This document shows, piece after piece, positions 2,991 through 50,733 of a stretch of 64,000 nucleotides of DNA; within the stretch, counting starts at the first letter, position 1, and each line of letters opens with the position of its first letter. The position numbers and the translations under genes were made by a program. This DNA is from Opitutales bacterium (GTDB lineage Bacteria; Verrucomicrobiota; Verrucomicrobiia; Opitutales; PNEW01), in assembly GCA_965197745.1 (NCBI GenBank), contig CBDANS010000007.1, positions 1,472,001-1,536,000 on the forward strand, written 5' to 3'. The notes beneath the pieces were generated by a model that worked only from the letters and a program-made list of their open reading frames with translations, was not told the DNA's origin and did no database searches.

Positions 2991-3305
2991 ATACGGCTGA
3001 CTGTAGGCGATATCGACGCTGATGGTGATGCAGTACCGCACCTTTTATTTGGATCGGAATCGTTCACCGTACCGGCGAACAATACCGGGTTGCGGATTAC
3101 GGGGGGAGACTTGGTGCAGACAAACGGAACTTCGATCGTAGTTGCGGAGAGTGGATCGACAACGCCCGGATTTGAGATATTGACGACACAGAACAATTTC
3201 AAATCCGACAACACTCCCCAGCCCACGCGGAGCATTGATGCAACGTTCGCCAATGAAGATGGTGATGAAATAATCGTCGACACTGAAGAGCTGACGATCG
3301 AGTAA
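2991..3305 (+). pseudogene. Orphan 3' remnant of the Ig-domain surface protein family (remnant A)
   Basis: Reads IRLTVGDIDADGDAVPHLLFG...RITGGDLVQTNG...QNNFKSDNTPQPT...EELTIE*, the last ~105 aa of the paralogs. The 3' flank TAAtccttcaaggggtatt matches copy 1. Confidence 0.9.
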
Positions 3306-3409
3306 TCCTTCAAGGGGTATTACATTAGCATACCTCACCCAAACAAAACGCCCTCACGACTCTACATCGCTCGAGAATACTACTCTATGTTTGTGTTACT
3401 ATCGAATCC

Positions 3410-3495
3410 CCTCGGGTAAAAAACCCCTCCGCCGCATGTGGTTTTATGAATTGTGAAAATTGCAAGAGGCGTTGCTTCGTGACCCCCGCCCCCCG
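3410..3495 (-). repeat. G-rich motif family (GGGGGCGGGGG...ATGCGGCGGAGG), divergent copy
   Basis: The reverse complement ggggggcgggggtc...catgcggcggaggggttttttacccgagggg resembles the copies at 16692, 19247 and 41418. Confidence 0.55.
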
Positions 3496-3680
3496 TCTTA
3501 TTCATTGCAATAGTTTTTGGATTTTTGACGGTTTAAGAGTAGGGTAACTATAAAATGGATGCTTAGAGGAACATGATCAAAGCACCTAAAATAAGGTTTC
3601 AGGAAACTAAATGTGCACCAAAAACGCACCAGACAAAATAATTAAATTAATTTATAATTCCCTAAGTCTTTGCTTATCAA

Positions 3681-3727
3681 TGGTTGGCCCTGCTGGATTC
3701 GAACCAGCGACCAAGGGATTATGAGTC
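3681..3727 (-). mobile_element. 3' half of a CAT-anticodon tRNA (Ile2/Met type), att-site-like remnant
   Basis: The minus strand reads GACTCATAATCCCTTGGTCGCTGGTTCGAATCCAGCAGGGCCAACCA (anticodon loop, T arm, CCA). The 5' half is absent. GCACCA direct repeats lie nearby at 3615 and 3626. Confidence 0.8.
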
Positions 3728-4209
3728 TCAGCGAGTGATGAGAGTGTTTTTAGGTGTATCGGTGGATTTTTTGAATGGTCTGGTCGCAATAACGCGATTG
3801 CTATTCAGATCTTAAGTTAAAATTTATATCCCAAGCCAAGAATGACTCGCTGTTGCGTTTTATCCACACCGATCGGTAAATTGTTATCAAAATCAATTTT
3901 ATATCTTAGATTGGTAATTAAGCGATTGGATATCTGGGTTTCTAGCCTGGTTAAAAACTTAATGGTCAATGAATCGGTATCCTTAGGATTAATAGAAATA
4001 TCTGACTCCTGATATAAGGTTAATTGTTCGCTGATTGTGTAACGGATACACTGAAAAATATGACCAAGTAATTCCCAATCCTCTGTGATTGTCGGTATAT
4101 TCTGGAATCGGCCACCAAGGCCGGGGGTGGCTTCGACTGGGTGTTGTGGAGGAATAGGAAGGTCGCCGACGTCCGAAGGGCTTCGTTGCGAATCAAAACC
4201 CGATCAGCT

Positions 4210-4325
4210 TCCGAGCCAGCCGCGGGTGTCGAAGATGTATTTTTGCTCGTGGGTCAGTTCGACTGCGGGTAATCAATCCGCGTTGGTGAGTTCGGACGTT
4301 TTGGATTCATCGATTGTGGGATGGT
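4210..4325 (-). pseudogene. Probable N-terminal remnant of a PhyH-like dioxygenase
   Basis: Reads ...SELTNAD*LPAVELTHEQKYIFDTRGWL, resembling PhyH N-termini (compare MLTPEQIAHFETFGFL at 25063). It has an internal stop and is truncated. Confidence 0.4.
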
Positions 4326-4342
4326 CTGATGGTCAGCGATGA

Positions 4343-6913
4343 TTAATGTTCGTGTGAATGCCCGTGATCGTGCAGAGGCGTATGTTCGTGGAAGACGCCG
4401 TGCTTGTGCATGCGCTGGTGCAGGCGGTTGTGGGCAGATTCCAGGGTGGCCCGTAATTGCTTGTAGCGCAGAGCTTCGGGCCGGGGGGCCAGGGTGTCGA
4501 CGTAGGCGATGGCGCCTTCGATCTGTTCCAGCACGGTCATGGCGTCTTGTTTGGAGAACAGCGGTTTATCTTCGACGACGACCTGGACGGCGCTGGTGTG
4601 GGCGGCGATTTCGCCGTGCTCGCCCTTATACGAGCCGCGCACGCGCAGGGCCACCCAGGTGGACGAATCGATCTTGACCTGAGCGCTGCCTTCGGCTTCC
4701 AGCGCCTTGTCAAAATTGGTCTGCTCGACGGCCAAGCCGCCGACGATGATTTCCACCTGGTCGATAGGTAGGCCGACCGATTCGACCTTCCAAGATACGG
4801 CGACGTGGCCGCCGGATCCGGGCAGGTCGATACGGCTGCCCGGCGCTTGACCTTCCACTTCAATAGATGCCAGCGGGCCGACGGTGACAAAGGTGTTGCC
4901 GGCTTTCACCGCGTCCATCCAGTTGTCGTAAGTGAGCTCGTGGCCGTTGAGGTTGGCGTAGGTGCGTACGCCGCCCAATTGAGAGCCCGCCGCCATTTTA
5001 TCGGAACCGCCGCAGACCGGCACGTGGTAGCCCAGGTTCAGATAGCGGTACCAGTCGGCCAGGCCGTAGGGGTTGAGCTGGCCGTAGAGCGGGTTGAAGG
5101 TCATCATTTCGACGGCGTGGACCAGACCCAGGACGATATCAGCGGCGCGTTCGCACTGGGGGTTGGGGGCGTGTGGCATGACCACCAGGCCGTTCTGCCT
5201 GATGCACTGTTCGGCCCATTCGGCCATGGTCAGTTCCTGCGGGTCGCCTACGGCCGATTCGGAGGGGCCGCCGGTGCACAACGGGTGGATCATGGCGCCG
5301 GAATAGCCCAGTAGGGAAATGTGGCCCAGCGTCTGCATGCGATTTTCCGAGCCGACGCGCACCAGGAATTCGCCGTTGCCGCCCAGTTCTTTGGCGCCGA
5401 TGGTGGTCTGGCCGTCAAAGTCGGACACGTTGCTGAACATTTCGCCCCACTGGCTAGCCAGCAGGTTGACTACATTGATGCCTTCGCCCTCGCCTTCCAG
5501 GCGGGCGGTGGTCGGCGACAAAAAGTGGACGTGGGTGTCGGCGGTGACCCAGCCCAAGCTGCGCCAGTCCAGCACATGTTCCAGTTCAAAGGTGAGTTCG
5601 TCGGTGTCGGGGGTGACGGTGAAGCTGCTGCGGGTGGGCTGGATCTCGTAGCCGCGGCTGATATGGATAAAGACTTCGCCCAGCGGCAGGTCGGCGACGC
5701 ATTCGCCAGGGACGTAGCAGTACTGGTTATGGCCGGCGATAAACTCGCCGTAGTTATCTTCAAACCAGTTGGCGTTGACCTTGCGGTGGTAGCCCTTGGG
5801 CGGCAGGTATTCGCCGCTCTGACCGTGCAGGTGGAGGCGTGCGGCAACGGGTTGGCCGCTGGCCTTGTCGACGATTTTCAGGGTGACCGGGCGGTGCGCC
5901 GGAGCCACCTCCATGGCGCCGTTAGAACCGGGTAGATCGTAGACCTGGTAGTCGCCGTCGCCGTCGCCGGTGGCGATATAGAGTTTGGCCTTGGGGTGGG
6001 CCGAGTATTCGATGACCACTTCGCGCTCCAGGCGGGTGGGCTGCACGTCGGCGGCGTTGCTTGCCCACGCTTGGGGGTCGTAGTCGAGGACAGCGCGAGA
6101 GGAGATGACGGTGCCTAGGTCGATATCGATGTCGATGTCGTCGAGTTCGTAAATGCCATTTAGCTCCACCCCTTCGGGCAGGGTCAGGCGCATCTTGCGG
6201 CGCACGCCGGGGCGTAAGGGGTGTTCATCTAGCTGGGTCAGGGTGACGGCGTAGATCAGGGCGCGCTCGGTTTGCGGCGTGCAGGTGATTTGGGCAATGG
6301 GTTGGTCTGGGTGCGGGTTAGGCAGGGCGTAGATCCACAGTTTTTCGCCCATGCTGTCGCGCGGCGAGCCGTGGCGGGTTTCGCCGCTGCCGTAATCATG
6401 GCCAATGTTGCCCAACCTATTGTCTTCGGTGTTGGTCAGGAAAACCACCGGCTTCATGGCGGGCAAGGCGGCAAAGGCGCTGGCGCCCCAGCCGATGTGG
6501 CTTTGCTGTATGGTAAAGCGGCGCAGCACCGGCACGCTGAAGGTTTCGCCGTTTTGGTAGTGGAGGGCGTAGTCGGCCACGTGGTCACCCAACTGGTTGC
6601 CGTCCTGGGCGCCTTCAGCAAAGCCTTCCTGGTACTTGGTAGGACGGTCCTCTACCCGGTGCAGGAAGAGGATGTAGCTGGCCTGGGCGCTGCCCGCGTC
6701 CAAGGTGACCGGATCTTTATCAAGCAGCACAACGTTGTCCGCGCCTTGCTGGCCTAAAATGAAAGGGATGCCGAGGAAGTCCTGGGCGCCGAAGGCCTTG
6801 CCGGTATCCTTAAGGGGTGTCAGTGTCAGGCTGCCGTCGAGTTGGTCGCGGTCGGTGTTGAAAGCCGCGTCGAGCACTAGGGGGGCGAAGAGATCGGATG
6901 GGGGGATTTTCAT
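4343..6913 (-). CDS. CehA/McbA-family (PHP-like) metallohydrolase
   Basis: 856 aa with WVTADTHVH, GSENR, GHISLLG, PHAP, WYRYLNLG..GGSD and GNTFVTVGP motifs and a His-rich C-terminus. The DNA is visibly much more GC-rich than its flanks. Confidence 0.8.
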   Translation of the reverse strand: MKIPPSDLFAPLVLDAAFNTDRDQLDGSLTLTPLKDTGKAFGAQDFLGIPFILGQQGADNVVLLDKDPVTLDAGSAQASYILFLHRVEDRPTKYQEGFAEGAQDGNQLGDHVADYALHYQNGETFSVPVLRRFTIQQSHIGWGASAFAALPAMKPVVFLTNTEDNRLGNIGHDYGSGETRHGSPRDSMGEKLWIYALPNPHPDQPIAQITCTPQTERALIYAVTLTQLDEHPLRPGVRRKMRLTLPEGVELNGIYELDDIDIDIDLGTVISSRAVLDYDPQAWASNAADVQPTRLEREVVIEYSAHPKAKLYIATGDGDGDYQVYDLPGSNGAMEVAPAHRPVTLKIVDKASGQPVAARLHLHGQSGEYLPPKGYHRKVNANWFEDNYGEFIAGHNQYCYVPGECVADLPLGEVFIHISRGYEIQPTRSSFTVTPDTDELTFELEHVLDWRSLGWVTADTHVHFLSPTTARLEGEGEGINVVNLLASQWGEMFSNVSDFDGQTTIGAKELGGNGEFLVRVGSENRMQTLGHISLLGYSGAMIHPLCTGGPSESAVGDPQELTMAEWAEQCIRQNGLVVMPHAPNPQCERAADIVLGLVHAVEMMTFNPLYGQLNPYGLADWYRYLNLGYHVPVCGGSDKMAAGSQLGGVRTYANLNGHELTYDNWMDAVKAGNTFVTVGPLASIEVEGQAPGSRIDLPGSGGHVAVSWKVESVGLPIDQVEIIVGGLAVEQTNFDKALEAEGSAQVKIDSSTWVALRVRGSYKGEHGEIAAHTSAVQVVVEDKPLFSKQDAMTVLEQIEGAIAYVDTLAPRPEALRYKQLRATLESAHNRLHQRMHKHGVFHEHTPLHDHGHSHEH

Positions 6914-7061
6914 GGTAGCACCTCAATGGTATGGGCGTTGTATTGGGCCGCGGCAAGAAGCGGGCCTGGTCTGGAGCGGTTGGAGCGGTTGGGCAAGAAG
7001 CTAAGTTAGCAAATGGAGTCTAGCCGGGGCAAATCTAATTTTGCGTGGGAAAATATCCAGA

Positions 7062-7088
7062 TGGGGTGGCTCACCGGATTTGAACCCG
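7062..7088 (-). mobile_element. Degenerate tRNA-His 3' end, att-like remnant
   Basis: The minus strand reads GGGTTCAAATCCGGTGAGCCACCCCA; 23 of 25 nt match the copy at 47817. Confidence 0.65.
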
Positions 7089-7752
7089 TTTCTTATCGAC
7101 ACGGCAAGCTTAATCCACTTGGACATATACTAGGCAACCCGCTCTTTTCAAAGTAATTAAGCACGCAATCACCCATTTGATTCATTTATACTATAAGGCA
7201 ACAAAGTGCCCTGAAATGGCGAATTGAGGAACGAAAATTGATACTTTGGTGGTACTTGGCTTAAAGGGGGAGGGGATCACTCACGTTCGTCAGCGCTCAA
7301 AGATTAATTTATTTACCTCCCCAATATAATTTTTGCAAAAAAGCCTTTTTGGAAAATAATTTAAGCGGAACGACTATCACCATAACCGATAGAGAAAAAT
7401 TAAAAGTTTATGAAAAAAATGCACTGTTTTTTATACTCATAAAAAAGCTGGGGTCTTGCGGCGCGACAAAAAATAATTTGGAGAAGTAAGGGGAGCAATC
7501 GAAAGCCGATTAAGCGTGATTTAAGGACCGTTAAACTAGGTTTCATGATAATTGCATAACTGTATAGCCAAAGCGGATCAACACGATTAAGGGTATGTAA
7601 AACGGGTTTAAAGGTTGTTGGTAATGTTAGGTAAAGTTAGGTAAAGCGGAGATATTTATCTGGACATCCTCAACTAATTTAAAGCTTATAAAAATGAGCT
7701 CGAAAGAAAAAATAAATTACCATGAAGAGATGTTTTAAAGAAAGGATAAGTC

Positions 7753-8172
7753 ATGATAGGAACAAAAACCCCCGACTATAGCCCAGAACAAATCCACGAT
7801 CAGTTAAATGTAATCAGCACGCTTGATAATGATGATTTACGCCGAGTACTGTCTGAACCAATTTCCTAATTACCTTATGAAATAGCAAATAAGGTTATAG
7901 AGAAAGTGATTTTTATTGCACCTGAACCTGGACAGAAAGGCGGTTTTATTTCTCCGGAAATAGTAAAAGAATTTATTCAGGGTAGAGCAATAATACATTT
8001 TCTGGAGAGTATATATGACTGGAGTAAAGATGAACAAATGAAAGTAATTTTGCATGAAATAGCCCATTTCCACTTAAATCATAAAGACGGACTTACCCAT
8101 GAAAAATCAATTGAAGAATTCCATCGCCAAGAAAAAGAGGCCTGGGAGCAAGTTGATAAGTGGCGTTCGTAA
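7753..8172 (+). pseudogene. HExxH zinc metallopeptidase (ImmA/IrrE-like), interrupted
   Basis: AAGGA RBS, then ATG7753 in frame with ORF 7906-8172, with an in-frame TAA at 7867-7869. Motif VILHEIAHFHLNH...QEKEAW. Confidence 0.55.
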
Positions 8173-8338
8173 TTTTATATTTGAACCGGATCCAATTTCC
8201 ATTCTCATCGTCATTCGGTGACCTTAAAATCCCACACGCTCTGCCTTTATGTTTGGGGCAAGCTATCTATAGTTTAGTATTCTCGAGTGATGAGAGCGTT
8301 TTGATGGGCTGGGATATACTTAGATATCCCATGAAGGA

Positions 8339-8653
8339 TTACTCTATCGTCATCTCTTCCACAGTGACTGTGATATCATTTCTGTCCTCGTTGCTGAAGG
8401 TGACGACAATGCTCTGGGTCGGCTGAGGGGTATTGTCGGATTTAAAATTGTTCTGCGAAATCAATGTATCAAATCCACGTGTAGTCGTTCCACTTTCAGC
8501 TACCACAATCGAGGCACCGTTTGTCTGCGCAATGTCGCCTCCGGTAATCCGCAACCCGGTATTGTTCGCCGGTACGGTGAACGATCCTGATCCAAATAAA
8601 AGGTGCGGTACTGCATCACCATCAGCGTCGATATCGCCTACAGTCAGCCGTAT
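8339..8653 (-). pseudogene. Orphan 3' remnant of the Ig-domain surface protein family (remnant B)
   Basis: IRLTVGDIDADGDAVPHLLFG...RITGGDIAQTNGASIVVAESG...QNNFKSDNTPQPTQ...EEMTIE*; an inverted counterpart of 2991-3305. Confidence 0.9.
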
Positions 8654-8656
8654 TCA

Positions 8657-8974
8657 TTAGAGGTCGATCCTGATTTCTTTAAGTTTAGGGGAGCCACACC
8701 CATAAGTTGAAATGAGCGTTGCTTTATATTGTAACCACTGGGCATCTGTCGGAATTCCTTCAATTGTTTCACCGGAAGTTTCATAAAATGACGCCTCCCC
8801 ATCCGGGCCCATCCAGGCTGCGTCTTCAAGACCTGTTTCCGATTCGCTCCATCGGAGCTGGAATTTTATTTTCAGAAGATCCGTCTCTTCACTATCCCAA
8901 TAGAGACGGCGCGCTATTTGATTACCCAGCTCGAAGGGTGGGGAAGTATAATTCTCTTCGGGCTCCCGGGTGAA
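8657..8974 (-). pseudogene. 3' fragment of a second FG-GAP protein paralog
   Basis: FTREPEENYTSPPFELGNQIARRL...KLKEIRIDL* is nearly identical to the last ~105 aa of 189-2987. Confidence 0.9.
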
Positions 8975-9360
8975 TACTGATAATTGCGTTAGCCTGATCA
9001 TGAGGCCCACTCAAAAAAGATTTTACTTCAAGTTCACCTAAATCATTCGCAAGCTTTTCCGTAATCGGCTCAATTTCATTTAAAAATTCCTGCGCTTCTT
9101 CATCTGATGCTTCCGCTAAGAGTTCCTCCAACTTTTTACGGAATTCGATAATAGGATTAATAACTTGCTTTAGCTGACTTACCTGAGATGCTTTCTTTTG
9201 AGCATTCTCGTGATCGTCCCAAAAAGCGGGTTGCCCCATCTCATTTTCGATCTTCGCTATTTCACCAAGTTTACATTCGGCGTCAAAGATACCTCCATAG
9301 GTATCCCGCCCGTCTATTTATTTCATCAATTTTAGAACGTATCTCGGTATCCAGTATCAT
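8961..9360 (-). pseudogene. prfB: Peptide chain release factor 2, 5' fragment with programmed +1 frameshift
   Basis: MILDTEIRSKIDEINRRAGYLWRYL, then GGAGG-TAT-CTT-TGA-C (9282-9296), then in the +1 frame DAECK...MGQPAFWDD...FLSGPHDQANAIISIHPGA. It breaks off where GGTE should follow. Confidence 0.9.
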
Positions 9361-9464
9361 TTTAGATAAATTATGAGTATTTATAGAATGAATGTAATAA
9401 GCGCTTTTTCAAGTTTTATAATTGCTAGCACTATTCAATTGAGCGCGGAACTACAACAGCCATT

Positions 9465-9570
9465 TAATCATCGTCTACGTCTGCGTCGTCGTCTTTCTCT
9501 AAAATATTAATAAGATATTTACTAAGTATAAAAATGAAGAAGACTACGACGCAGACGTAGACGATGATTA
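9465..9570. repeat. 31-bp inverted repeat built from CGTCT/CGTC units
   Basis: Arms 9465-9495 and 9540-9570 are complementary with one mismatch. A related element lies at 60503-60666. Confidence 0.8.
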
Positions 9571-9696
9571 TCGTGAATTACCCTTAAATAAGATCTGACT
9601 ATTCAACCGCATTTAATTCCGACCGACCATTGAGGGTAAATTTTTTCGGCGCCTTTTCACCACTCAAAATGAGACTGGACCCTAGCCAAGAGATTA

Positions 9697-11277
9697 TCAT
9701 CTTGTATGCGGATAGAAATTCATCGTAGATAGGTAACAAGTACACCAAATCTGCTTTACACATAAACAGAAAAACTCGTAATAAATGAAATGGACTTCCG
9801 TGTTGTGTTGTAACCAGAATGTAGCGGGTATGGCGATGGCAGTACCTATAACCCATCCAGGATAGGTAACAATCATGTTTACACATAAACAGAAAAACTC
9901 GTAATAAATGAAATGGACTTCCGTGTTGTGTTGTAACCAGAATGTAGCGGGTATGGCGATGGCAGTACCTATAACCCATCCCAGAAAATTTGCACGCTGA
10001 GTGAAAATACCAAGTAGAAAAAGGCCAAGAATTGGTCCCCCAAAAAGGCTCATGAGAGTGCCGGCAGCTTTTATAATTTCTCCTATTGTTGTAACATAAC
10101 AGGCAACAATTACCGCTAATGCTCCCAAGACAAAAGTAAGAATACGCGCTAACTGTACGTCTTGATGTTCAGTCCTGGCTTTGCGGCGCAATGGTTTAAC
10201 AAAATCGTTAACGATGACCGTAGAGACTGAATTTATCCCTGAATCCATACTTGACATCGCGGCCGCAAAGATGGCTGTGATGAGGAGTCCGGATACCCCG
10301 TCAGGAAGATTCTGCATAATGTAAAAAGGCAGCACTCTATCTCCTTTCATTTCCAGGGAGGCTTGCTCGGGAAAATGGTGATAAAAAGCGAACATGCCGA
10401 TTCCGATAAATATTAAAAGGCCGACTATGATAAAATCGATGAATGAGTTAACTACCGTAGCCTTTACCATCCCGCTGAATTTCTTTGTCGCTAAAAGCCT
10501 TTGCACCGTAACCTGGTCAATCCCGTAGTTGAGAAAAAACCCAATGAAAGTAGTGAAAGCAACGGCCGTAGCACTCATCTCAAAAATGCTGATTTTCCAG
10601 GTGAATACATTCAAATGGTTTGTTTCGCTGGCGATAGCAATAATACCAGACCACCCATCGGGAACGGAATTAAGTAAACTTACAAACACCCAAAATGCCC
10701 CGACCACAAGGATGATGAATTGAATAGCATCAGTCCACAGAACAGCGGACAGGCCACCGAGAACCGTATAGGTGGTGGCGAGAACGCCCATGAGAAGAAT
10801 TGCGAGATAAAGGTCAACCCCGGTCGCTACCGATAAGGCAAGAGAGGGGGAGTAGATGACAATGCCAAGCCAGGATAAACGCAGCAGCACAAACAATCCC
10901 GATACGGCATAGCGACCGGGTCTCCCGTAGCGAAACCCTATGTATTCGTAAGTAGTGGTTACGCGGAGCCGTCGATAAAAAGGATAAAAAAGATAGATAA
11001 AAAAGGGAGCGGCCAGAACACTAACAATCCCAATAGCAATTTGAGAAATATTTTCTCGATAAACGAGCCCCGGCATTCCGATAAAGATAGAGGCGCTCGT
11101 AAGCGAGGCGAACATACTCATGGCAACGATAATCCATGGCATTTTTCGACCCGCGAGGAAGTAGTCTTCTGTCGTCTTCTGCTTTCCAGCCAGCCATAAC
11201 CCGATACTAAACATTACAGCCAGATAAACAGCACATATAGTGTAATTAAAAACGCTGAATGAGGGTAATTCTTCCAT
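9697..11277 (-). CDS. Sodium:solute symporter (SSS family), C-terminus disturbed by a tandem duplication
   Basis: Motifs EDYFLAGR, YTVLGGLSAVLWTDAIQ, DQVTVQRLL and AIFAAAMSSMDSGINS. The segment GWVIGTAIAIPATFWLQHNTEVHFIYYEFFCLCV occurs twice. Confidence 0.88.
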   Translation of the reverse strand: MEELPSFSVFNYTICAVYLAVMFSIGLWLAGKQKTTEDYFLAGRKMPWIIVAMSMFASLTSASIFIGMPGLVYRENISQIAIGIVSVLAAPFFIYLFYPFYRRLRVTTTYEYIGFRYGRPGRYAVSGLFVLLRLSWLGIVIYSPSLALSVATGVDLYLAILLMGVLATTYTVLGGLSAVLWTDAIQFIILVVGAFWVFVSLLNSVPDGWSGIIAIASETNHLNVFTWKISIFEMSATAVAFTTFIGFFLNYGIDQVTVQRLLATKKFSGMVKATVVNSFIDFIIVGLLIFIGIGMFAFYHHFPEQASLEMKGDRVLPFYIMQNLPDGVSGLLITAIFAAAMSSMDSGINSVSTVIVNDFVKPLRRKARTEHQDVQLARILTFVLGALAVIVACYVTTIGEIIKAAGTLMSLFGGPILGLFLLGIFTQRANFLGWVIGTAIAIPATFWLQHNTEVHFIYYEFFCLCVNMIVTYPGWVIGTAIAIPATFWLQHNTEVHFIYYEFFCLCVKQIWCTCYLSTMNFYPHTR

Positions 11278-11311
11278 CTATTTATTTAGATTAAAATTAC
11301 CCGTTTTCGCG

Positions 11312-11605: not shown

Positions 11606-12029
11606 AGCCTTTGTTATGTAATTCAACTCTCCAATATATAACTAACTATTAATTAACACTATATATTAATTATTAAATACTTATGAATCAGTATTTCTCA
11701 TAATCCTCGAGAAATTAAATAGTCGAATATAGCGTGGAATAGCGAATATTGGGGAGCATTGGGGAAGCGGGTATCACCATATCTTATTGTTTATTTTTAA
11801 CTACACCTACCTCTTACACTCATAAGTTTGCTCTTAAAATTAAGAAGATGCAACTACCAGTTCAATTCATAGATGATCGAATCTAAGATTTTACAAACAC
11901 AATTCTGACTCTAAATCCAGAAACCCATAAATTTAGCTCATTGATTGTGACAACGATTGCTGCCCCTATTTTAATCCTATCGTCGAATCACTCATTGCAC
12001 CGTCATTAACCGACTGCCGCACGAATCTC

Positions 12030-41765: not shown

Positions 41766-43805
41766 CCAACCCCGATCAAAAAAGAATTGTTCGGGGCGGG
41801 CGATGCCGGGGGTTTGTAAGGTTCCGCTGTTTGGCGCGACATCGGGAACATTACGAAAATTATTTTTTACCACGACAATGCCGTTCATGCCCGGTGATTG
41901 CCCGACAGTGCCAACAACATAGAGATTGTCTGAATGGATTCTCCATATTTCTTTTCCCAGTTCCGTTCGCATCGCTTTGGGCAGGCCATTACCTTCCTCA
42001 AATATTTCTATCAAACGTTTAAGATCTCCACAAGGGGCCACGCCCTTTCGACCGTTAGATTCATACCATAAGCCGATTTGCGACGCAAAGGTACCGCGAC
42101 TGAGTGGTATGGTCATGCCGGGTAAAGTCCACGGGTTTTCAGAACCGCCCGAAACCCACATGCTAAGTTGGTGATCGTTGATTGATTGACGTCTGCTATA
42201 ATAACTTCGCTCTTCAACGCTTAAATGTATATTTATGCCGATATCCTTCCAATGATTCACGAGAAGTTCAGCTATACCTTCAAAATTAACCATCGCCTGA
42301 CTCAGCACTGATTGCGTAATAATCAGACGTTCCTTATTGTCAGTGCGCAGTCGGTATCCTTCGTTGTCCTTTTTATCCAAACCGATAGCGTCGAGGATCG
42401 CGTTGGATTGTTCCAGGTCGCGCACCGCATTCTTTTTTTCGTACTCCGGTCCGGGATAATACGGGTTATTCGGGAATGGGACGAAGGCCCTTGGCTGACC
42501 CATGCCCAGAAAGATCGATTCGTGTATCTCCTCTCGATCGATAGCAAGAGACAGAGCAATGCGAAATTTACGGTTTCTAAGCCACTTTTCTATTTCCGGA
42601 TCTCCCTGCCAGGTTTGGTTAATAAATATTATGGCATCGGAACCTCCTAAATTAGGCCAGAAGAGTACGCGGTAATTACCTCTTTTTGCTTCCCGCTTGA
42701 GAACAGGGACCTTGTCCAAGAGGACATGACGGTGCTGCATGTCTACTTCTCCAGCCATAACGCGAGCATTGAACACCTCTAAGTCCTCAACCAGATGCAT
42801 TACAATCTTGTCGATATAGGGAAGCTGATTCCCTTCGGGATCGACGGCAAAGTAATAGGGGTTGCGTTCCAAAGAGTAAATTTCACTCGTTATCGGAGTA
42901 ACCATCTTCCAGGGACCGACCACCGGTATTTCGGGGTTCTCGTGGGGCGAAGCCATGCGTTTGAAGAGTTGCACCCAACTTCTATCACCCGTAGACTTCA
43001 TCTTAATTTTCAGATCACTTAAGGGGGTATACTTCGAGTGAAACTGCATTAAATAATGCCGGGGAGCATAGAGAGGGCTTTCCCATCTGCGGGCGAATTG
43101 GCCTCCCACCGCTAATCCACCAGCATTTTCGATGAATACATAGTTTGGTTTATGAAAGGTATAACGAACCGTGGTCTCATCTAACTTTTCCACTTTAAAC
43201 CGTTGCCCATCCGCTTTTGTGTAGTTGGGTATTACCGGGTTGATATTATCATTCAAGGTCACGTCTTCGAAGGCGAAAACAAAGTCATCAGCCGTGAACG
43301 GCGCTCCGTCAGACCACTTCATGCCCTGGCGCAGATGGAAAGTAAACATTGTCCCGTCTACGCTGATTTCCCATCCTTTCGCGATGTGGGGCATCAGGGT
43401 ATAACCGTCGATATCGAAGTAAATTATATGATCGTGTATTATCCGGTCGATGTTGTTACGATCGCCACGCCCCGTAAAACCGCGGCGCCAGGTACCACCG
43501 TATTGGCCGATGCGTTCAATGGGTGGAATAATCAACGGATCTTCGGGCAGACGGTCTTCTACCGAGGGCAACTCTCCCGCAGCAACGCGCTTTGCCAGTT
43601 CCGGCGCTTCGTTGAAAGTTGTGGGAATCGAGCCCTTATAAATAAAACTAAATCCTTCAGTACTGACAGCGTCTCGTTTAAGTGTGTCCAGTTTTCCTTT
43701 TGATTGAGTGTCATTGCTCCTGCTGCAGCCAAATGCTGCAATAATGATTGCCATCATGCATAGTGTGATCGGTATCCGATACCTGCTGAAATAGAATACC
43801 TTCAT
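41763..43805 (-). CDS. ABC transporter family-5 solute-binding lipoprotein, paralog of 36833-38857
   Basis: Lipobox-like AAFGC; colinear with 36833-38857; ends FFFDRGW instead of FFFEN. Confidence 0.9.
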   Translation of the reverse strand: MKVFYFSRYRIPITLCMMAIIIAAFGCSRSNDTQSKGKLDTLKRDAVSTEGFSFIYKGSIPTTFNEAPELAKRVAAGELPSVEDRLPEDPLIIPPIERIGQYGGTWRRGFTGRGDRNNIDRIIHDHIIYFDIDGYTLMPHIAKGWEISVDGTMFTFHLRQGMKWSDGAPFTADDFVFAFEDVTLNDNINPVIPNYTKADGQRFKVEKLDETTVRYTFHKPNYVFIENAGGLAVGGQFARRWESPLYAPRHYLMQFHSKYTPLSDLKIKMKSTGDRSWVQLFKRMASPHENPEIPVVGPWKMVTPITSEIYSLERNPYYFAVDPEGNQLPYIDKIVMHLVEDLEVFNARVMAGEVDMQHRHVLLDKVPVLKREAKRGNYRVLFWPNLGGSDAIIFINQTWQGDPEIEKWLRNRKFRIALSLAIDREEIHESIFLGMGQPRAFVPFPNNPYYPGPEYEKKNAVRDLEQSNAILDAIGLDKKDNEGYRLRTDNKERLIITQSVLSQAMVNFEGIAELLVNHWKDIGINIHLSVEERSYYSRRQSINDHQLSMWVSGGSENPWTLPGMTIPLSRGTFASQIGLWYESNGRKGVAPCGDLKRLIEIFEEGNGLPKAMRTELGKEIWRIHSDNLYVVGTVGQSPGMNGIVVVKNNFRNVPDVAPNSGTLQTPGIARPEQFFFDRGW

Positions 43806-44295
43806 AACGCTAATTAAGCTAAGACAGTGTAGTATCGATTAGGGTAGGTGATAATGTAAATGTTTCGTCATTGTTAGTTATCAGTATAATCGAGATAATC
43901 AATAATCTTTGCCTGCCTCTTCGTCACAGCTAATTTTTGGTAACTTTGATTCTTAACCCATATTTACCATATCATCATAAGAATATTTGCTTGCAATTAT
44001 CGCTATCTTGTTGATAATAAGTCATTTAATGCGACGTTAAGCAAGCAAACTCTCAAAATCCAATGGATGACGCAAGATTCTCTAACCGCACAGAATCACT
44101 CACGCCAGTATTCCTCGGGTAACGGTCAAATTCTCAATGAACAGTAATTACCGCCTATGCAACTTTCAGATACCACGGAGAAAGGATTGCCAAAGTGTCT
44201 TGAGAGGAGCAAAATGCTTTCGAAAGCTTCAGAGGTCGACAATTTTAACGATTCATTCCCGTCATATGGGAAATCCCGGATAACAAATCAAAGAT

Positions 44296-45054
44296 ATGAG
44301 TAAACTACGTGTTCTTATTTGGAATGAATTCGTCGATGAGAGAAAAATGGAAGAAGTGAAATCTATCTATCCTCAAGGTATTCATGAAACATTAATGAGG
44401 GAATTAATGGAAATTGGTAAAGATCTGGAAATTGAAACTGCTACACTCGAAGATCAAGAACATGGCTTAACTGGCTCACGTTTAGCTAAAACAGATGTGC
44501 TGGTTTGGTGGGGACACTGTGCCCACGATAAAGTTGACGAAACTATTAGCGAAAGAGTACAAATACGCGTGCTTGAAGGTATGGGATTTATCCCCTTACA
44601 TTCCGCTCATTTATCAAAAGTTTTTCTTCGCCTCATGGGTACGACATGTACGTTGAATTGGCGTGAAGTCGGTGAGAAAGAGCGGTTGTGGGTATGCAAC
44701 CCGGGGCACCCCATCGCCGAGGGAATCGATGAATGCTTTGAAATAGAAAACACCGAGATGTATGGTGAACCTTTCGATATTCCACCACCTGAAGAACAGA
44801 TTTTTATTTCATGGTTTGAGGGTGGAGAGGTTTTTCGCAGTGGGAACTGCTGGCGTCGCGGCAATGGAAAAATTTTCTACTTTCGACCTGGGCATGAAAC
44901 TTTTCCGATTTATCAAAATAAGACGGTTATCAAGATAATCTACAATGCGATAAAATGGGCCGCTCCGCAGGGGATCTGGCGAGAGTCTTTAAGAAATGTT
45001 CCGATCGAGCTTGCCCGTGAAAAAATTATCGGAAATCGTAGAAAAGAATCCTAA
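44296..45054 (+). CDS. thuA: Trehalose-utilisation ThuA-like protein
   Basis: VLIWNE...IYPQGIH, DVLVWWGH.AH, LHSAH.SK.F, EMYGEPFDIP.P, SWFEGGEVFRSG and FYFRPGHETFPIY. Confidence 0.88.
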   Translation: MSKLRVLIWNEFVDERKMEEVKSIYPQGIHETLMRELMEIGKDLEIETATLEDQEHGLTGSRLAKTDVLVWWGHCAHDKVDETISERVQIRVLEGMGFIPLHSAHLSKVFLRLMGTTCTLNWREVGEKERLWVCNPGHPIAEGIDECFEIENTEMYGEPFDIPPPEEQIFISWFEGGEVFRSGNCWRRGNGKIFYFRPGHETFPIYQNKTVIKIIYNAIKWAAPQGIWRESLRNVPIELAREKIIGNRRKES

Positions 45055-45349
45055 AAAGGGAGTTTGTTAAATTTAAGTTTTGCTCATCTATATGGTGCTT
45101 AATAGGAGAGGTACTAAGATAGTTAATAAAGCTTCGTCTTCGTCCGCAGAGGCGAGTTACCTGACCGCCGCTGTAACTTTAAATTGAATAGCGAAAGCTG
45201 ATCTCTAGCACGCTTCTTCAATGACGACATAATCAAACGCGCTAGGGACAGCCTTCGCTGTGTCGTGATAGGCTACGGCGGTCAGGCAGCGCATTCCACC
45301 TTAATTCTTTCAAGCCAAGGTGGAGCGGGATGCGGGCGCTTATGCACGT

Positions 45350-45407
45350 TTTAGGTTTTAAGTTTTAGGTGTTAAGTAATTTAACCTAAAACCTAACACT
45401 TAACACC
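45350..45407. terminator. Heptamer-repeat hairpin downstream of Ig copy 5 (possible terminator)
   Basis: ttaggttttaagttttaggtgttaag...ttaacctaaaacctaacacttaacac. Related hairpins lie downstream of copies 3, 4 and 6. Confidence 0.45.
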
Positions 45408-45454
45408 CGTGGCACGCCACAGCATAGCGACGGCGGCTAACACTTATCGATAGT

Positions 45455-47680
45455 TCATTCAATGGTTATCTCATCCACCTCGACGGATATCTCTTCGTCG
45501 TCCTCATTGACAAACGTTGCATTAATGGTCTGTGTCGGCTGAGGCGTGTTGTCTGATTTGAAGTTGTTCTGCGTGATCAAGGTATCGAATCCCGTCGTCG
45601 TCGATCCACTCTCCGCTACCACGACTGCCGCACCGTTCGTCTGTAACAAGTCGCCACCCGTGATCCGTAACCCGGGGTTGCCGGCTGGAACGGTGAAGGA
45701 GCCTGAGCCAAATAATATGTGCGGTACCGCATCGCCACTGGCATCGATGTCGCCAATCGTTAAGCGTACCCCGATCGGTACCCCACGCGCGTCGATACCG
45801 GTCTTGCCCGTACTTCCACTGAACACGGTGTTCGACAGTTGTATGCCGCCCATGCCCGTGGAATTTACAATTTCCACGAGGGTCACGTCCGCTTGCGCGT
45901 CATAGACCTGTCCTTCGGGGAAGAGGGCCTGGTTAAACGCGTTGATCCTACCCACGGTGAAGATACTGAAGAAGGTATTGGCGTCCGCTCCGTCGATCAC
46001 TACGCTCGGTTTGCCCGTCACGTACTCAACGGCTTGGTTGTAGCGTGGGGGGATGGCCGGGGGGAGGAAGGTGGCCGGATCCAGGGTTACGGTAAAGGTC
46101 CCTGCGCCCGAGAACTCTACCTGCACGATATCCTCGTTTTCATCCATGAAAGAGACGCGGGTGATCTGTCCCGATTTGGCCTGGAGTTGGACGGACTCTC
46201 CGGTGAGTAAAATCTGGTCGAAGACATTACCGTTGGCATGCTGAATGTTTTCACCGGCGATATCACCCGAACCGTCGAGGACGAGAGGAACGGCCGGGGC
46301 TGCGATGGTGATAACAGCGGTATCGCTATCGGCTGTACCTCCAGCGTTAGTTATCTGCACCCAGAAGCTTGTGCTCGCGGTGAGCGCGCCGGTGTCCAGC
46401 GTACTACCGGTTGCTCCAGCGACGGGAGCGGCGGTGTCACCGCTGTTTCCGGTGTACCACTGGTAAGTGAGATCATCACCACTGGCGGCGACAGACAAGC
46501 TCGCCGTGGTGCCGGATGCAACTTCCTGGCTCGCGGGCTGTGTGGTGATAGAGGGAGCATCAGCGGGTGGGGGACCCTCGGAGCCTGTGCCCGGTGCGCC
46601 AATGGGGGTAAAACCGAAATCATCGAAGACTGTCCGGCTGAAAGCTACATTTATATTGGGATTGTCCGTAACAAGCAGTCTGCCAATGCCGCCTGGAGCT
46701 CCCAACTCCACCGCATTGATCGTAGTTTGACGGGGTTTATTTAAAGAATTAAGACCCCCAGCACCCCCACCACTTCCAGCACTTTCCAAGTCCGAAATAT
46801 TAGCAAGAAGGTTATCATTAGTATCGTAAACTTCAATTGAGCCGTCGGGGTCAGTACCGCCAGCCAAAATAATGGCTGCGGCGAAAACATCGATCTCAAA
46901 TGCCGGAGTTTCAAAAGTGACCGTGAAGCTTTCTCCGTTAAAAATACCATAGGATACTTGTCCCGAGCGAACTGGACTGTCTGCAGCAGCAGCTAGAATC
47001 GAGCCACCATCAAAAGTAGCACTATTGGGTGATTCTCCAACAATAATGGGTGCCGTTAATCCTGCACCCACACTGAATTCCTCAAATGTAGTGAATACGG
47101 TGTTATTGGACGGTCTTTCCGTTATCGTGAAACCCAGATCGTCAAGGGAGAATTTTCCTGAAACATTTTTGATTTTTAATTCTTTAATGCCGTCGAGAAA
47201 GTCAAAATCGGTTGAGTCGAGGAACATATCACTGTCTGAAACGAAGCTTTGTAATGGGGGATTGGCACCGGGACTGATATTGGTCGGTAGACCTTCGACA
47301 ATACCATTATCCGCTAGAATTAATACAAATATATTGCCTTCAAAAGAGATATTTCCTCTGGGCTCGATTCTACCGGCTCCCGTATTCTCGGCCGCATAGA
47401 ATTGGATTTCATCAATTCCTCTTTCCGATACAATTACCCCCTCCTGACCAGGTCCTAGGGTTATCGCTTTTGTTCCGGAGTGTAAAAGCGCAGGATCCTC
47501 TAAAGTTTCAACGGTGAATCCGACTAACTTGATCCTATTGGGCTCTTCCCCGATAAAAAATTCACCTTCACCGCTGATGTCCTCGAAATCAGTGAACACC
47601 TCCAGATCTTGAGGAAGAGCTATTAGAAGAAGAGGGGATAAAACTGAGAAAATAATGATCGCTAACGAATTATTTTTCAT
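45455..47680 (-). CDS. Secreted Ig-domain surface protein, copy 5
   Basis: Same architecture; closest to copy 2 in the N-terminal domains. Confidence 0.88.
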   Translation of the reverse strand: MKNNSLAIIIFSVLSPLLLIALPQDLEVFTDFEDISGEGEFFIGEEPNRIKLVGFTVETLEDPALLHSGTKAITLGPGQEGVIVSERGIDEIQFYAAENTGAGRIEPRGNISFEGNIFVLILADNGIVEGLPTNISPGANPPLQSFVSDSDMFLDSTDFDFLDGIKELKIKNVSGKFSLDDLGFTITERPSNNTVFTTFEEFSVGAGLTAPIIVGESPNSATFDGGSILAAAADSPVRSGQVSYGIFNGESFTVTFETPAFEIDVFAAAIILAGGTDPDGSIEVYDTNDNLLANISDLESAGSGGGAGGLNSLNKPRQTTINAVELGAPGGIGRLLVTDNPNINVAFSRTVFDDFGFTPIGAPGTGSEGPPPADAPSITTQPASQEVASGTTASLSVAASGDDLTYQWYTGNSGDTAAPVAGATGSTLDTGALTASTSFWVQITNAGGTADSDTAVITIAAPAVPLVLDGSGDIAGENIQHANGNVFDQILLTGESVQLQAKSGQITRVSFMDENEDIVQVEFSGAGTFTVTLDPATFLPPAIPPRYNQAVEYVTGKPSVVIDGADANTFFSIFTVGRINAFNQALFPEGQVYDAQADVTLVEIVNSTGMGGIQLSNTVFSGSTGKTGIDARGVPIGVRLTIGDIDASGDAVPHILFGSGSFTVPAGNPGLRITGGDLLQTNGAAVVVAESGSTTTGFDTLITQNNFKSDNTPQPTQTINATFVNEDDEEISVEVDEITIE

Positions 47681-47816
47681 GGTTATTTCATATTAAGTGT
47701 TAAAATTCAAAAGATTCAATCTCCATTTAGTCTCGTTATTATCAATATATTAGGTTATTTAGTATACTTAGTTAAATCATAAGTTGTTAATATCAGATCT
47801 TAAATGATTAAATCGC

Positions 47817-47860
47817 TGGGGTGGCTAACCGGATTCGAACCGGCGACCCCGGAACCACAA
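47817..47860 (-). mobile_element. 3' half of tRNA-His(GTG), att-like remnant
   Basis: The minus strand reads TTGTGGTTCCGGGGTCGCCGGTTCGAATCCGGTTAGCCACCCCA. The 5' half is absent. Confidence 0.8.
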
Positions 47861-47981
47861 ATCGATACTGTAGATCTATAAGGGTTTTACCTAATTACTC
47901 CGTGGATTTGACGAAGCGAGCATAAGCGAGCGTAGATGGGTCAACCAGAGGTTGAGGGCAGAGCCCCGAACGTAGTGAGCC

Positions 47982-48000
47982 AATCCCACCCTCTCCGCCA
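47982..48000 (+). repeat. tRNA-Ser-like 3' end remnant
   Basis: AATCCCACCCTCTCCGCCA, with shorter copies at 48112, 27736 and 27905. Confidence 0.6.
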
Positions 48001-48152
48001 GTTCGATTGTCGATTGCACCTGACGGATAAAAAATTGTTTATCTTGTGAACCATTCTAGAGACTTTCTTAATCAATCGAAAATCGTCAATCGAAAATCGG
48101 AAATTATCTATCCCTCTCCGCCACTTCGATTGTGGATATCAGATTACGGATC

Positions 48153-48480
48153 GAATAAAAAGTCGACGGTTGTAGGTTATTTCCTTTTTGTCATTGCGAG
48201 GAGCAACGCGACGCGGCAATCCAGTAAAATGTCTGTTGCGTAATGTAATTCCCGTGATGTTAGGAATTACTCTCAACTAATCGATTTCCTTTAAATGAAG
48301 AGACGAATCCTCATTGGAAAGACCAGAGCAGAGATTTTTATTCGTAAGCACTATGACTATGTGCCTAGATTGCCGCAGTCGGTTGCACCTCCTTCGCAAT
48401 GACAAAAAGGGAAGAGCGCTAATGCGCGTGTTATGTGTTAAGTTCCAAGTGTTAAGTAAATTAACCTAAAACCTAACACT
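48153..48480. repeat. Second copy of the ~325-bp intergenic block
   Basis: Near-identical to 27953-28278; contains a TGTCATTGCG element at 48189-48404. Confidence 0.9.
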
Positions 48481-48525
48481 TAACACATAATAAGCGTTGG
48501 TCTCCTACATTTTGACGTTTTGACC

Positions 48526-50733
48526 CTACTCAATCGTGATCTCTTCGAGAACAACCGCGATCGCATCGCCGTCTTCATTGGCGAAGGTGGCGTCGATACT
48601 CTGAGTCGGCTGAGGCGTGTTATCGGATTTAAAATTGTTTTGCGTGATCAGGGTCTCAAACCCGGTGGTGGTTGATCCACTCTCCGCCACGACGACCGCA
48701 GCGCCGTTGGTCTGCAAGAGGTCTCCTCCGGTGATCCGCATCCCGGGGTTGCCCGCCGGTACCGTGAAGGACCCATCTCCAAACAGGAGGTGGGGTACCG
48801 CATCGCCACTGGCATCGATGTCACCTACCGTTAAGCGTACCGCGATCGGCACCCCGCGCGCATCGAAGCCGACCTTGCCCGTGCTTCCACTGAACACGGT
48901 ATTCGATAACTGTACCCCTCCCAGTCCCGTGGAGTTGACTACTTCCACGAGGGCCACGTCGGCCTGGGCATCATAGACCTGTCCTTCGGGGAACAGTGCC
49001 TGGTTAAAGGCGTTGATCCTTCCCACCGTGAAAATGCTGAAGAAGGTACTGGAGTCCGCTCCATCGATGACCACGCTCGGCTTGCCCGTCACATATTCGA
49101 CGGCCTGGTTGTAGCGTGGGGGGACGGCCGGAGGCAGAAAAGTGGCTGGATCGAGGGTTACGGTAAAGGTCCCATTACCTGAAAATTCTACCTGTACGAT
49201 GTTCTCGTTTTCGTCCATGAAGGAGACGCGGGTAATCTGTCCCGGCTTAGCCTGGAGTTGGACGGACTCTCCGGTGAGTAATATCTGGTCGAAGACGTTG
49301 CCGTTGGCATGCTGAATGTTTTCCCCGGCGATATCGCCTGAGCCGTCGAGAACGAGGGGGATGGAAGGTGCTGCCACGGTTATCACCGCAGTTTCACTGT
49401 CATCACTGCCGCCGGCGTTGGTAACCTGCGCCCAGTAGTTCGTGCTCGTGGTGAGTGCACCGGTAGTTAAGGTGCTGCCGGTGGCGCCGGAGACGGGTGC
49501 TGCGGTGTCACCGCTGTTGCCGGTATACCATTGGTAAGTAAGATCATCACCGCTGGCCGCTACGGTCAGCACTACCGCCGTGCCAGACTGCACCTCCTGG
49601 CTCGCGGGTTGGGTAGTGATGGAGGGGCCTTGTGCTGGAGGGGGTCCGCCTCCATCTTCGAAACCCGGGGTTCCAATAGGAGTAAAACCGAAGTCGTCGA
49701 TGCCTGTTGAGCTGAATAATGGATTTACATTTTCATTATCGAGTAAAAGAATTTTAGCAATGCCGCCCACGGCTCCCAATTCACTGGCAATAAATGTATA
49801 ATGTGGAACGAGTGATCCCTTCAGGATATTGGTCGCCAGATCTACTTCCCTGGCAATTAAATTATCTTCAGTATCAAATACCTCAATAGTACCATCGGAT
49901 TCGCCTAATGCTTGGGCGACGATGGTTGCGGCAAAAAATTGTACTCGGGCTGCCGGTGTTTCGAAGGTGATCGTTCCCGTATCGCCATTCTGAACTCTCC
50001 AGTGACTACGTTGTGTGCGGAATTAAAAGCCGAGCAAATCTTCCGCTTCCTGGGATATATCTGCGCCTGAAAAGGTGGCGGTAAAAGGCGATGTTCCAAT
50101 AGTAATATCATCACTGGTAGGTTGGAATTCTGAAAAGAAAGTAAATACCGTGTTGTTCCTCGGCCCATCGATGAGGGTATAACCCACATCGTCGATGGCT
50201 AATTTACCCGTTACATTCAGGAATTTAATTTCATTCATCCCGTCAATGTAATTGAGGTCCGATTCGTCAAGAAAATTGCCACTAAAGGCAACGATTCTTT
50301 GCAGCGGAGGATTGTACTCCGGGTTGATGCTGTTTGGAAAGCCCGTAAAAACACCCTGCTGAGTTAATTCAAATACTTCTTGTCCTGTTGCATCTGTATC
50401 ACGTTCTCGAACCTCGATCTTTCCCGCGCCCGTGTTTTCAACCACGTAGAATTCGATTTCAGCAATCCCTTTTCTCGTGAAAATCTTTCCTTCCTGGCCG
50501 GGGCCCAGGGTTATTGCTTTCGTTCCCGAGTGCAGCAGACTTGGATCCTCCAGCGTTTCTACCGTAAACCCAATAAATTGGATTTGATTAGGTGGATCAC
50601 CGAGTAAAAAATCAACTGAACCTTCGGCATCTTCAAAATCTAAAAAATTTTCCTGGTCTTGTGGAAGAGCTCGGAGAAGAAGCGGGAAAAAGAGTGAGAT
50701 TAGTGATACGGATACAATATTTTTTAAGCGCAT
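48526..50733 (-). pseudogene. Secreted Ig-domain surface protein, copy 6, with one in-frame nonsense codon
   Basis: ORFs 50023-50733 and 48526-49779 are in the same frame (2208 nt in total). After TAA 50023-50025 the frame stays open as FRTQRSHWRVQNGDTGTITFETPAARVQFFA...DGTIEVFDTEDNL. Confidence 0.85.

Follow-up and report, generated by a model that had tools for sequence, protein, structure and literature searches.

Six genes of a large family of putatively exported proteins lie on the minus strand of the window analysed here, a 64,000-nucleotide stretch (C7:1472001-1536000) of the 92% complete genome G000 of a presumably marine Opitutales bacterium; the titled relatives of its sequences are Opitutales as well. 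The proteins combine a pair of variable N-terminal domains (heads) with an immunoglobulin-like (Ig) domain and a conserved C-terminal domain (tail). With a probability put at about 60%, they represent a lineage-specific, genome-wide, Sec-exported family in which a fixed repertoire of heads is carried on a shared, recombining tail, and the window holds a cluster of them within an additive island. By the sequence comparisons set out below, the family undergoes no active surface switching or tip diversification. Its plan can be regarded as a variation on the known design of many passengers sharing one terminal surface module. The comparisons draw on two close relatives (G001 and G002), on the fragmented genome G003, and on a further carrier, G223.

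Gene architecture and extent of the family

A first-pass annotation, made from the letters of the stretch, had described in each gene a leader running to A-LPQ, two related domains, a Pro/Gly linker, an Ig domain, and a tail of ~275 amino acids, in other words a variable tip on a constant stalk and base. Profile matches bear this layout out. A hydrophobic leader ending before (A)LPQ—by its sequence a Sec-type signal peptide—precedes the head domains D1 and D2, which are homologous to each other (profile–profile probability 98.6%, E 7.9e-16); the Pro/Gly linker, an Ig domain of the Ig_7 type (PF19081, E 6e-8 to 4e-11), and the ~276-amino-acid tail follow. Among the five intact window genes and the copy immediately left of the window, amino acid identity amounts to 62-93% in D1, 49-84% in D2, 59-87% in Ig, and 78-92% in the tail. 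Since nucleotide identity among these copies never exceeds 91% in any region, they are paralogues rather than alleles. All six genes annotated as full-length paralogues are present (Table 1), but gene 6 is split by an in-frame TAA into frames of 236 and 417 amino acids. This break is probably real and the gene a pseudogene, because its downstream part is matched at 99.5-99.8% identity by two database proteins that are both 414 amino acids long. For gene 1, the start is most likely the GTG at 19073, which matches the position of the ATG in the paralogues, rather than the TTG at 19112.

The window genes do not form a self-contained array: a seventh copy, also intact, stops 37 bp short of the window's left edge, and 95 loci in the genome carry the tail domain, 87 near-complete and 8 partial, the latter all 3′-only. 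Five of the 87 are split over more than one frame, and one is an assembly duplicate of gene 1. A strong D1 is found in 59 frames, and D1, D2, and tail are intact together in 48; family frames make up 4.3% of the genome, and about a tenth of the copies are broken. A single query gave 88, 90, 68, 12, and 40 matches in G000, G001, G002, the fragmented G003, and G223, respectively, figures that count matches and not exact copy numbers. Across genomes, the distribution is patchy: the family occurs in three of three genomes of the same taxonomic family, in one of 37 other genomes of the order, and, across the phylum, in three of 400 genomes, all of one genus. In the protein library, the tail forms 814 clusters at 50% identity. 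Neither viral contigs nor plasmids yielded a relative. The first-pass annotation had recognised no named system, and this view stands: the tail has no match in Pfam or NCBIfam, and a profile search against PDB sequences gave one chance hit (E 0.39). Nor did literature searches on Opitutales genomes and symbionts, on secreted and surface proteins of Opitutaceae, and on LExRxLLA-type leaders, covering mainly freely accessible papers, bring up an article on the family.

Within the family genes (e.g., 28289-30520) the GC content changes stepwise, from 42-47% in the heads to 51-64% in Ig and tail, against 45% for the genome. Their 3′ flanks (e.g., 45250-45450 and 48073-48480) contain dense heptamer tandem repeats and palindromes resembling repetitive extragenic palindromic (REP) elements, and the stretches 27865-28278 and 48073-48480 are 92.5% alike. 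By eye, no common upstream or downstream motif was found in the flanks of the family genes, which are mosaics of REP-like and heptamer repeats. A further family of ~630-amino-acid proteins (L140-L143; G000:C4:142040, C6:104079, C6:750427, and C7:2082587) carries the same Ig domain, lacks both tail and heads, and matches nothing else in Pfam.

Head domains

The mature protein of gene 3, the copy that also served as query, is predicted to fold into four beta domains (predicted local distance difference test, pLDDT, 88.9). The models of D1 and D2 match carbohydrate-binding jelly-rolls with Z 9-10 and a root-mean-square deviation (rmsd) of 2.8-3.5, the best matches being 8x8h (Z 10.1, rmsd 2.8, 124 aligned), the DUF4465 structure 9hmu (Z 9.5), and CBM61 (2xom, Z 9.2). 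The earlier suggestion of ligand-binding heads accords with this predicted fold, which resembles that of carbohydrate-binding modules (CBMs). At the sequence level, the heads match no Pfam or NCBIfam entry, including any named CBM family, and their neighbours in the ESM Atlas (0.91-0.92) are unnamed clusters only. Tandem galactose-binding-like CBMs (CBM22 tandem 4xup, CBM61, CBM4, and DUF4465) likewise consist of two homologous jelly-rolls in a row; the heads differ from them in being 6-17% identical, in lacking a Pfam match and a catalytic module, and in that their carbohydrate binding is a prediction. The heads of each paralogue would bind a different ligand, most likely a glycan, to judge by the fold.

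Trees of heads and tails were built from 48 intact genes of G000 and 48 drawn from 54 G001 loci (a subset of that genome), with the G002 genes left out. The D1 and D2 trees have 36-38 of 52 supported splits in common, none of the close pairs (0/29 and 0/26) is discordant between the two, and 18 of 20 and 21 of 24 supported pairs unite one gene from each genome. Five loop regions carry the variability: they are 12% identical among paralogues, with lengths differing by up to 25 residues, and 89% identical in 26 reciprocal-best cross-genome pairs picked on framework columns only, where the pooled ratio of nonsynonymous to synonymous change (dN/dS) is 0.19. For 57 close-head pairs, the median dN/dS is 0.13 in D1 (56 pairs) and 0.22 in D2 (55 pairs), and it exceeds 1 in 0/56 and 1/55 of them, respectively. 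Forty-two genes fall into 34 head clusters at 80% identity. As far as these comparisons go, the head repertoire is older than the split of G000 and G001, and the heads are under purifying selection. Some 34 or more old head types, kept in this way, would constitute a hard-wired repertoire. Stable orthologues across relatives, which the first-pass annotation had named as an outcome at odds with a diversifying array, are thus found for the heads; neither the tails nor the positions of the genes show such stability.

Recombination in the constant part

The history of the Ig domain and tail departs from that of the heads. The tail tree reproduces only 3-4 of the 52 supported splits of the heads, 46-47 of which conflict with a supported tail split, and pairwise identities of head and tail are nearly uncorrelated (Spearman 0.09-0.13, vs 0.76 for D1 and D2). 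In the same close-head pairs, the synonymous distance (dS) is 0.89-0.96 in Ig and tail compared with 0.35-0.47 in the heads, the pattern that a replacement of tails by those of distant paralogues should leave. Individual exchanges can be seen as well: gene 1 and its counterpart in the same island of G001 are 98-100% identical from ~200 bp upstream to the middle of the tail and ~75% identical thereafter, and C4:21794 and C5:218741 show the same sharp break within the tail. Near-identical tracts number 186, in 146 of 3828 pairs, and 151 of them lie wholly in Ig and tail; the longest, of 640-820 nt, connect genes only 70-85% alike.

Gene position is unstable, too. Both flanks are conserved in 11 of 29 orthologous pairs, vs 24 of 26 single-copy control anchors (median DNA identity 74%), and cross-genome identity of at least 95% extends over 4.8% of family-locus DNA but over none of 400 kb of control DNA, insertion sequences (ISs) being unmasked in this comparison. 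Read as traces of past exchange, these patterns show recombination to act in the constant part, with tails being swapped and genes moving. The array had been proposed to be maintained by recombination, which is borne out in that copies recombine and fails in that recombination does not keep diversifying the tips. Mechanistically, ~90 copies of Ig and tail, 70-90% alike, permit homologous recombination to swap and homogenise tails within and between genomes, and heads move together with their promoters as units that become joined to resident tails.

The tail domain

The tail alone is predicted to fold confidently (pLDDT 97.5, predicted template-modelling score 0.94). Its model has no Foldseek match at E ≤0.001 and weakly resembles right-handed beta-helices, with a best Z of 6.7 (rmsd 4.3) and none at Z ≥8 among 48,161 chains; for this model, a Z of 6.7 neither names the fold nor proves it new. 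Its neighbours in the ESM Atlas (0.85) are unnamed clusters only. Two tail copies folded together scored 0.00, a result counted neither for nor against self-association.

Among the best 150 library representatives, 85 carry the tail at the C-terminus, 45 at the N-terminus, and 11 at an internal place, and 9 consist of it alone, so that 139 of 150 are terminal. It caps unrelated passengers—FG-GAP, RCC1, CARDB/trypsin-like, CAP, polysaccharide lyase, cyclophilin, and pyrroloquinoline quinone (PQQ) propeller—in a set of 34 tail-bearing proteins scanned, 22 of which have Pfam matches. Many N-terminal tails follow an LExRxLLA leader in proteins of 1000-1300 amino acids, and repeats-in-toxin (RTX) sequences occur in 5 of 45 scanned. 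LExRxLLA is a proposed export signal of planctomycete surface proteins, as presented in PMC8567305; in the Pfam scan these leaders gave sub-threshold PF07595 matches only. The LExRxLLA/tail genes are flanked by genes for TolC, HlyD-type adaptors, an M50-type protease, tetratricopeptide-repeat (TPR) glycosyltransferases, and SapC (L144-L147; G001:C1:582763-606627), and their products may be S-layer-like. A gene of this kind is present in G001, G003, and G223, with several clustered copies in G001 and G003. Because the tail occurs at either end of its proteins, follows two kinds of leader, and has a dN/dS of 0.06, it is best read as an attachment domain, most likely one shared by many proteins at the cell surface. 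By it, the heads and some 25-30 further passengers would be fixed to the cell surface at a site that they have in common.

A close analogy is with SLH and CWB2, non-covalent anchors common to S-layer proteins and many passengers. In both cases, one conserved module is found at either terminus of dozens of unrelated exported passengers and of S-layer-like proteins. In contrast to SLH and CWB2, which are short helical triplet repeats, the tail is a single ~275-amino-acid all-beta domain without a sequence match, and its host is a diderm member of the Planctomycetes–Verrucomicrobia–Chlamydiae (PVC) group. If the tail is indeed an anchor, a new route of protein display in PVC bacteria would emerge, and hundreds of unnamed clusters (814 at 50% identity) could be annotated. 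The 34 or more head types per genome would represent a ready library of probable glycan-binding domains from presumably marine polysaccharide degraders. The recombination data also provide a clear case of a conserved protein domain at which genes are exchanged between genera within flexible islands. A new mechanism of immune evasion or hypermutation would not follow.

The tRNA-Ser island and the remnants

The cluster lies in a flexible island that starts at tRNA-Ser(GGA) (C7:1460569), 11.4 kb left of the window, where backbone synteny with G001 and G002 stops. Compared with the island of G000, those of G001 and G002 are small (~21.5 kb and ~22.7 kb vs ~64 kb), and each of them starts with a family gene. 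Cassettes are 92-100% identical across genomes, vs 71-81% for the backbone: at this level, gene 1 is shared with the G001 island, gene 2 and two PhyH genes with the G002 island, and the block comprising gene 5, ThuA, the solute-binding-protein gene, remnant C, PhyH, and an oxidoreductase with a different G002 locus. Besides the tRNA-Ser 3′ repeat within the window, another lies at C7:1464701; integrase-like relics are found at 12090-12515 and, beside that second repeat, at C7:1464784-1466010, with sub-threshold Int_N matches (E 6e-4 and 0.013). The arrangement is that of an island loaded additively with family genes and metabolic cassettes, of which relatives hold different subsets at the same site, the route of entry being a matter of interpretation. 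In the account of Alteromonas additive islands in PMC4898812, the tRNA insertion site, internal tRNA 3′ repeats, differing cassette sets, and near-identical cassettes in divergent backbones are all paralleled; unlike those islands, the present one has a repeated protein-coding tail that is also a recombination point, and only integrase-like relics were found in it.

A non-coding element that recurs in the window (Table 1) was considered as a family-specific feature and rejected: it is tied to tRNA ends, and only 7 of its 11 matches lie within 600 bp of a family gene. Likewise, comEC is no usable sign of natural transformation, being present in 5/5 genomes but also in 10/14 controls; in G000 it is split over two frames (C6:806604-807466), and it is whole in the four other genomes searched.

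Three 3′-only remnants had been reported in the window as orphans. All of them exist—remnant A on the plus strand—but they contain the constant 3′ end only, and without variable sequence they cannot donate new tips. In remnants A and B, the switch from FG-GAP sequence to tail codon 173-174 takes place across five bases that are present both in the tail and in the native FG-GAP flank (in G001; with one mismatch in G002). The two are near-identical across the junction and ~75% identical in the distal tail; the chimera was therefore evidently copied onto a second tail by recombination. The junction of remnant C occurs in G002 as well, and a contig of a different study spans it. For a fourth remnant (C7:1117224), the state before the deletion is preserved in G002, where a complete family gene follows the same cargo gene. 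Of the other remnants in G000, two abut ISs and a third results from an internal deletion. The partial copies of G000, 8 out of 8, are 3′ ends holding constant sequence only, and the 3 seen in G001 are likewise all 3′ ends; either the tail keeps its place when heads are traded, or stumps with nothing but a head are eliminated. The remnants appear to be scars of deletion or of homology-facilitated illegitimate recombination (a process summarised in PMC6382021), and for A to C either origin may apply. As they have no promoter, leader, or head, they would serve at most as landing sites for recombination.

Alternative explanations

The family could be a product of assembly, in which alleles of several strains were stitched into one contig. 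The assembly is of the metagenome type, several genes including comEC are split, and the end of contig C5 (C5:498537-509561) duplicates 11 kb of the window (12485-23500) at 99.8%, starting at an IS3-type element with ~30 copies; this duplicate is probably an alternative assembly path or a strain rearrangement. An artefact is nevertheless scarcely credible: the window copies are too dissimilar to be alleles, two other near-complete genomes hold similar numbers, and the family turns up on independent contigs of short-read metagenomes, where 10 of 54 loci have at least two tail matches. None of the 54 matches the window at ≥90% over 400 bp. In the 4 sequencing runs examined of 22 listed, all as contigs, none of which spanned the array, unique island genes were recovered at >99% in runs of three studies, and the summed depth over tails was ~10-45 times that of unique genes; the RNA run among them gave scant coverage. 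The first-pass annotation had itself raised collapsed strain alleles as a danger to its reading, and these results speak against them.

Active surface variation, in which tips are diversified from orphan cassettes or by a retroelement and so evade recognition by phages or hosts, is very improbable. The contrast of framework and loops, with loops of 12% identity among paralogues, frequent recombination, and the proportion of broken copies are what such a system would produce. The same loops are, however, conserved between cross-genome orthologues with dN/dS 0.19, the remnants carry no variable sequence, and each intact copy has its own leader and a distinct upstream region. No reverse transcriptase (RVT_1) was matched in three of three genomes (92-94% complete; the control was positive in 3/14), and the change spectrum in the heads of the 57 close pairs shows no adenine bias (2004 C/T and 1921 A/G changes). 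Polymorphic-tip systems with orphan cassettes include Rhs, contact-dependent inhibition (CDI), and MafB, and antigenic variation is exemplified by vls and pilS. The family shares with them a constant body, a variable end, partial copies nearby, and recombination in the constant part. It differs in that its variable part is N-terminal, its partial copies hold the constant end only, every intact copy has a leader of its own, and the heads are, by their dN/dS, under purifying selection. Fibrillar adhesins with a shuffled, mutable beta-sandwich tip, as treated in PMC10952558, also present a variable ligand-binding tip, an Ig-like stalk, and a terminal anchor-type module; the family departs from them by another tip fold family, a one-domain stalk, an unnamed terminal domain, and ~50-60 paralogues in one genome.

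Other readings concern the role of the tail. [quoted passage not shown] Its terminal position in 139 of 150 representatives, its very strong conservation, its weak likeness to beta-helices including the secretion domain of filamentous haemagglutinin (FHA; 1rwr, Z 5.7, rmsd 4.5, Foldseek E >1), and a patchy distribution (4/401 and 5/41 genomes), as expected of a dedicated machine, would all suit a sorting signal. T9SS cargo of Bacteroidota, a subject of PMC4804311, similarly joins a Sec leader, a variable passenger, an Ig spacer, and a conserved terminal domain in many paralogues, and the family's own Ig domain matches PF19081, the CHU_C-associated Ig. Yet the tail is a ~275-amino-acid, beta-helix-like domain instead of a small beta-sandwich, is N-terminal in 45 of 150, and matches no T9SS-CTD or TPS model. 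The TPS domain is N-terminal after the signal peptide, whereas the tail is C-terminal in all six window genes and in 85 of 150 representatives. Moreover, a signal for one machine is hard to reconcile with a tail placed at either end behind two leaders, one of them beside its own TolC/HlyD exporter, and no partner gene is tied to the window copies. Searches for the machines themselves found SprA in none of five genomes and no TpsB/ShlB match in G000-G002 (one sub-threshold match in G223), with controls silent in both cases (0/14 each).

That the tail is a substrate-targeting module, which binds one external polymer—a food particle or host matrix—and concentrates the passengers on it, is unlikely. 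All its top structural neighbours are beta-helices that act on or bind polysaccharides (alginate lyase, tailspikes, and pectate lyases), and, in the manner of CBMs, it is attached to passengers that resemble hydrolases and lyases. A Z of at most 6.7 is not diagnostic, however; an N-terminal tail on S-layer-like proteins agrees better with a module that binds the surface of its own cell; and the carriers span lineages differing in genome size and family. Going further than the explanation favored here, the tail might be a PVC display module with a new, beta-solenoid-like fold, borne by S-layer-like proteins and up to ~90 passengers, its DNA acting as a genome-wide recombination anchor by which heads and metabolic cassettes are exchanged between genera while the tail stays at its locus; this extension is possible but doubtful.

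The favored explanation—a fixed head repertoire on a recombining surface-attachment tail—also faces difficulties. The tail tree is the weaker in signal (25 supported splits), and the high conservation of the tail makes short shared tracts easier to obtain by chance. In the comparison of D1 with D2, 6-8 of 52 supported head splits conflict, indicating some mosaicism, and some heads are recent duplicates, which speaks against a fully static picture. The pairs used for dN/dS are not independent, and the loop columns were chosen from the same alignment. The jelly-roll matches include domains that bind no glycan (DUF4465 with vitamin B12, MAM, and reelin), and a glycan ligand of the heads is therefore rated only as likely, since DUF4465 and MAM match too. 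The tail's predicted fold gives no function because no close structure exists, a best Z of 6.7 being within the range of unrelated folds, and the anchor role is deduced from position and distribution alone. Neither G000 (92% complete) nor G002 yielded the S-layer-like LExRxLLA gene; therefore, the tail cannot simply dock on that protein there. Finally, family genes lie near 5/45 tRNAs (≤5 kb) vs 19.7% of random positions, without genome-wide enrichment, so the tRNA link is local.

Features of the window

Table 1. Family genes, remnants, and associated features of the window (positions are those of the window).
Feature	Position	Strand	Remarks
Flexible island, right-hand part	1..52172	.	~64 kb in total; shared backbone resumes at 52173
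FG-GAP repeat protein gene	129..2987	+	directly upstream of remnant A; follows the seventh intact family gene directly
Remnant A	2991..3305	+	tail residues 173-276, joined 4 bp past the FG-GAP stop via 5-nt microhomology
Remnant B	8339..8653	-	second copy of the same FG-GAP::tail junction
FG-GAP 3′ fragment	8657..8974	-	upstream of remnant B; itself joined to the prfB-like fragment
prfB-like fragment, PCRF domain	8922..9239		joined to the FG-GAP fragment at a short shared word
Non-coding element	16689..16800	.	all three genomes have it just downstream of tRNA-Ser as well; further copies 19186-19307 and 41404-41496
Family gene 1, intact	16791..19073	-	D1 19001-18489, D2 18485-17934, Ig 17885-17628, tail 17624-16794
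Family gene 2, intact	25412..27625	-	tail 26242-25415; a copy in the corresponding G002 island, interrupted by an IS, is 96.5% identical
Family gene 3, intact	28289..30520	-	D1 30454-29930, D2 29926-29429, Ig 29389-29132, tail 29119-28292
Family gene 4, intact	34435..36693	-	tail 35265-34438
Remnant C	41605..41766	-	tail residues ~224-276, joined to the 3′ end of the solute-binding-protein gene
SBP_bac_5 solute-binding protein gene	41763..43805	-	end overlaps remnant C
Family gene 5, intact	45455..47680	-	heads the cassette 38905-47635, found at another G002 locus at 92-98%
tRNA-Ser 3′-end direct repeat, 22 nt	47982..48003	+	95% identity, E 0.002
Family gene 6, broken	48526..50733	-	in-frame TAA 50023-50025 in a D2 variable loop

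Rfam and ARAGORN found nothing inside the window. A 42-nt fragment resembling the 3′ end of tRNA-Met lies at 3681-3722, and its second copy at C7:1696457 is also near a family gene. Two paralogous fusions of SBP_bac_5 with a BPD_transp_1 permease, each of ~1095 amino acids and 79% identical at the DNA level, are located between family genes (20867-24154 and 30875-34159); G002 lacks the first of them between the same two PhyH genes. Genes of the PhyH dioxygenase family are present four times (19703-20554, 24275-25063, 40151-41026, and 51342-52139), and the island cargo further comprises two stand-alone SBP_bac_5 genes and ThuA-like and GFO oxidoreductase genes. The gene of a CehA/McbA-type metallohydrolase (4213-7086) is 94-95% identical to copies that stand beside family genes at other G001 and G002 loci. 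The gene of a class III nucleotide cyclase with a membrane segment (15497-16543) is apparently cut short at its 3′ end, and that of a sodium:solute symporter (9697-11277) has its last segment duplicated as a perfect internal repeat of 104 bp (9755-9858 = 9878-9981).

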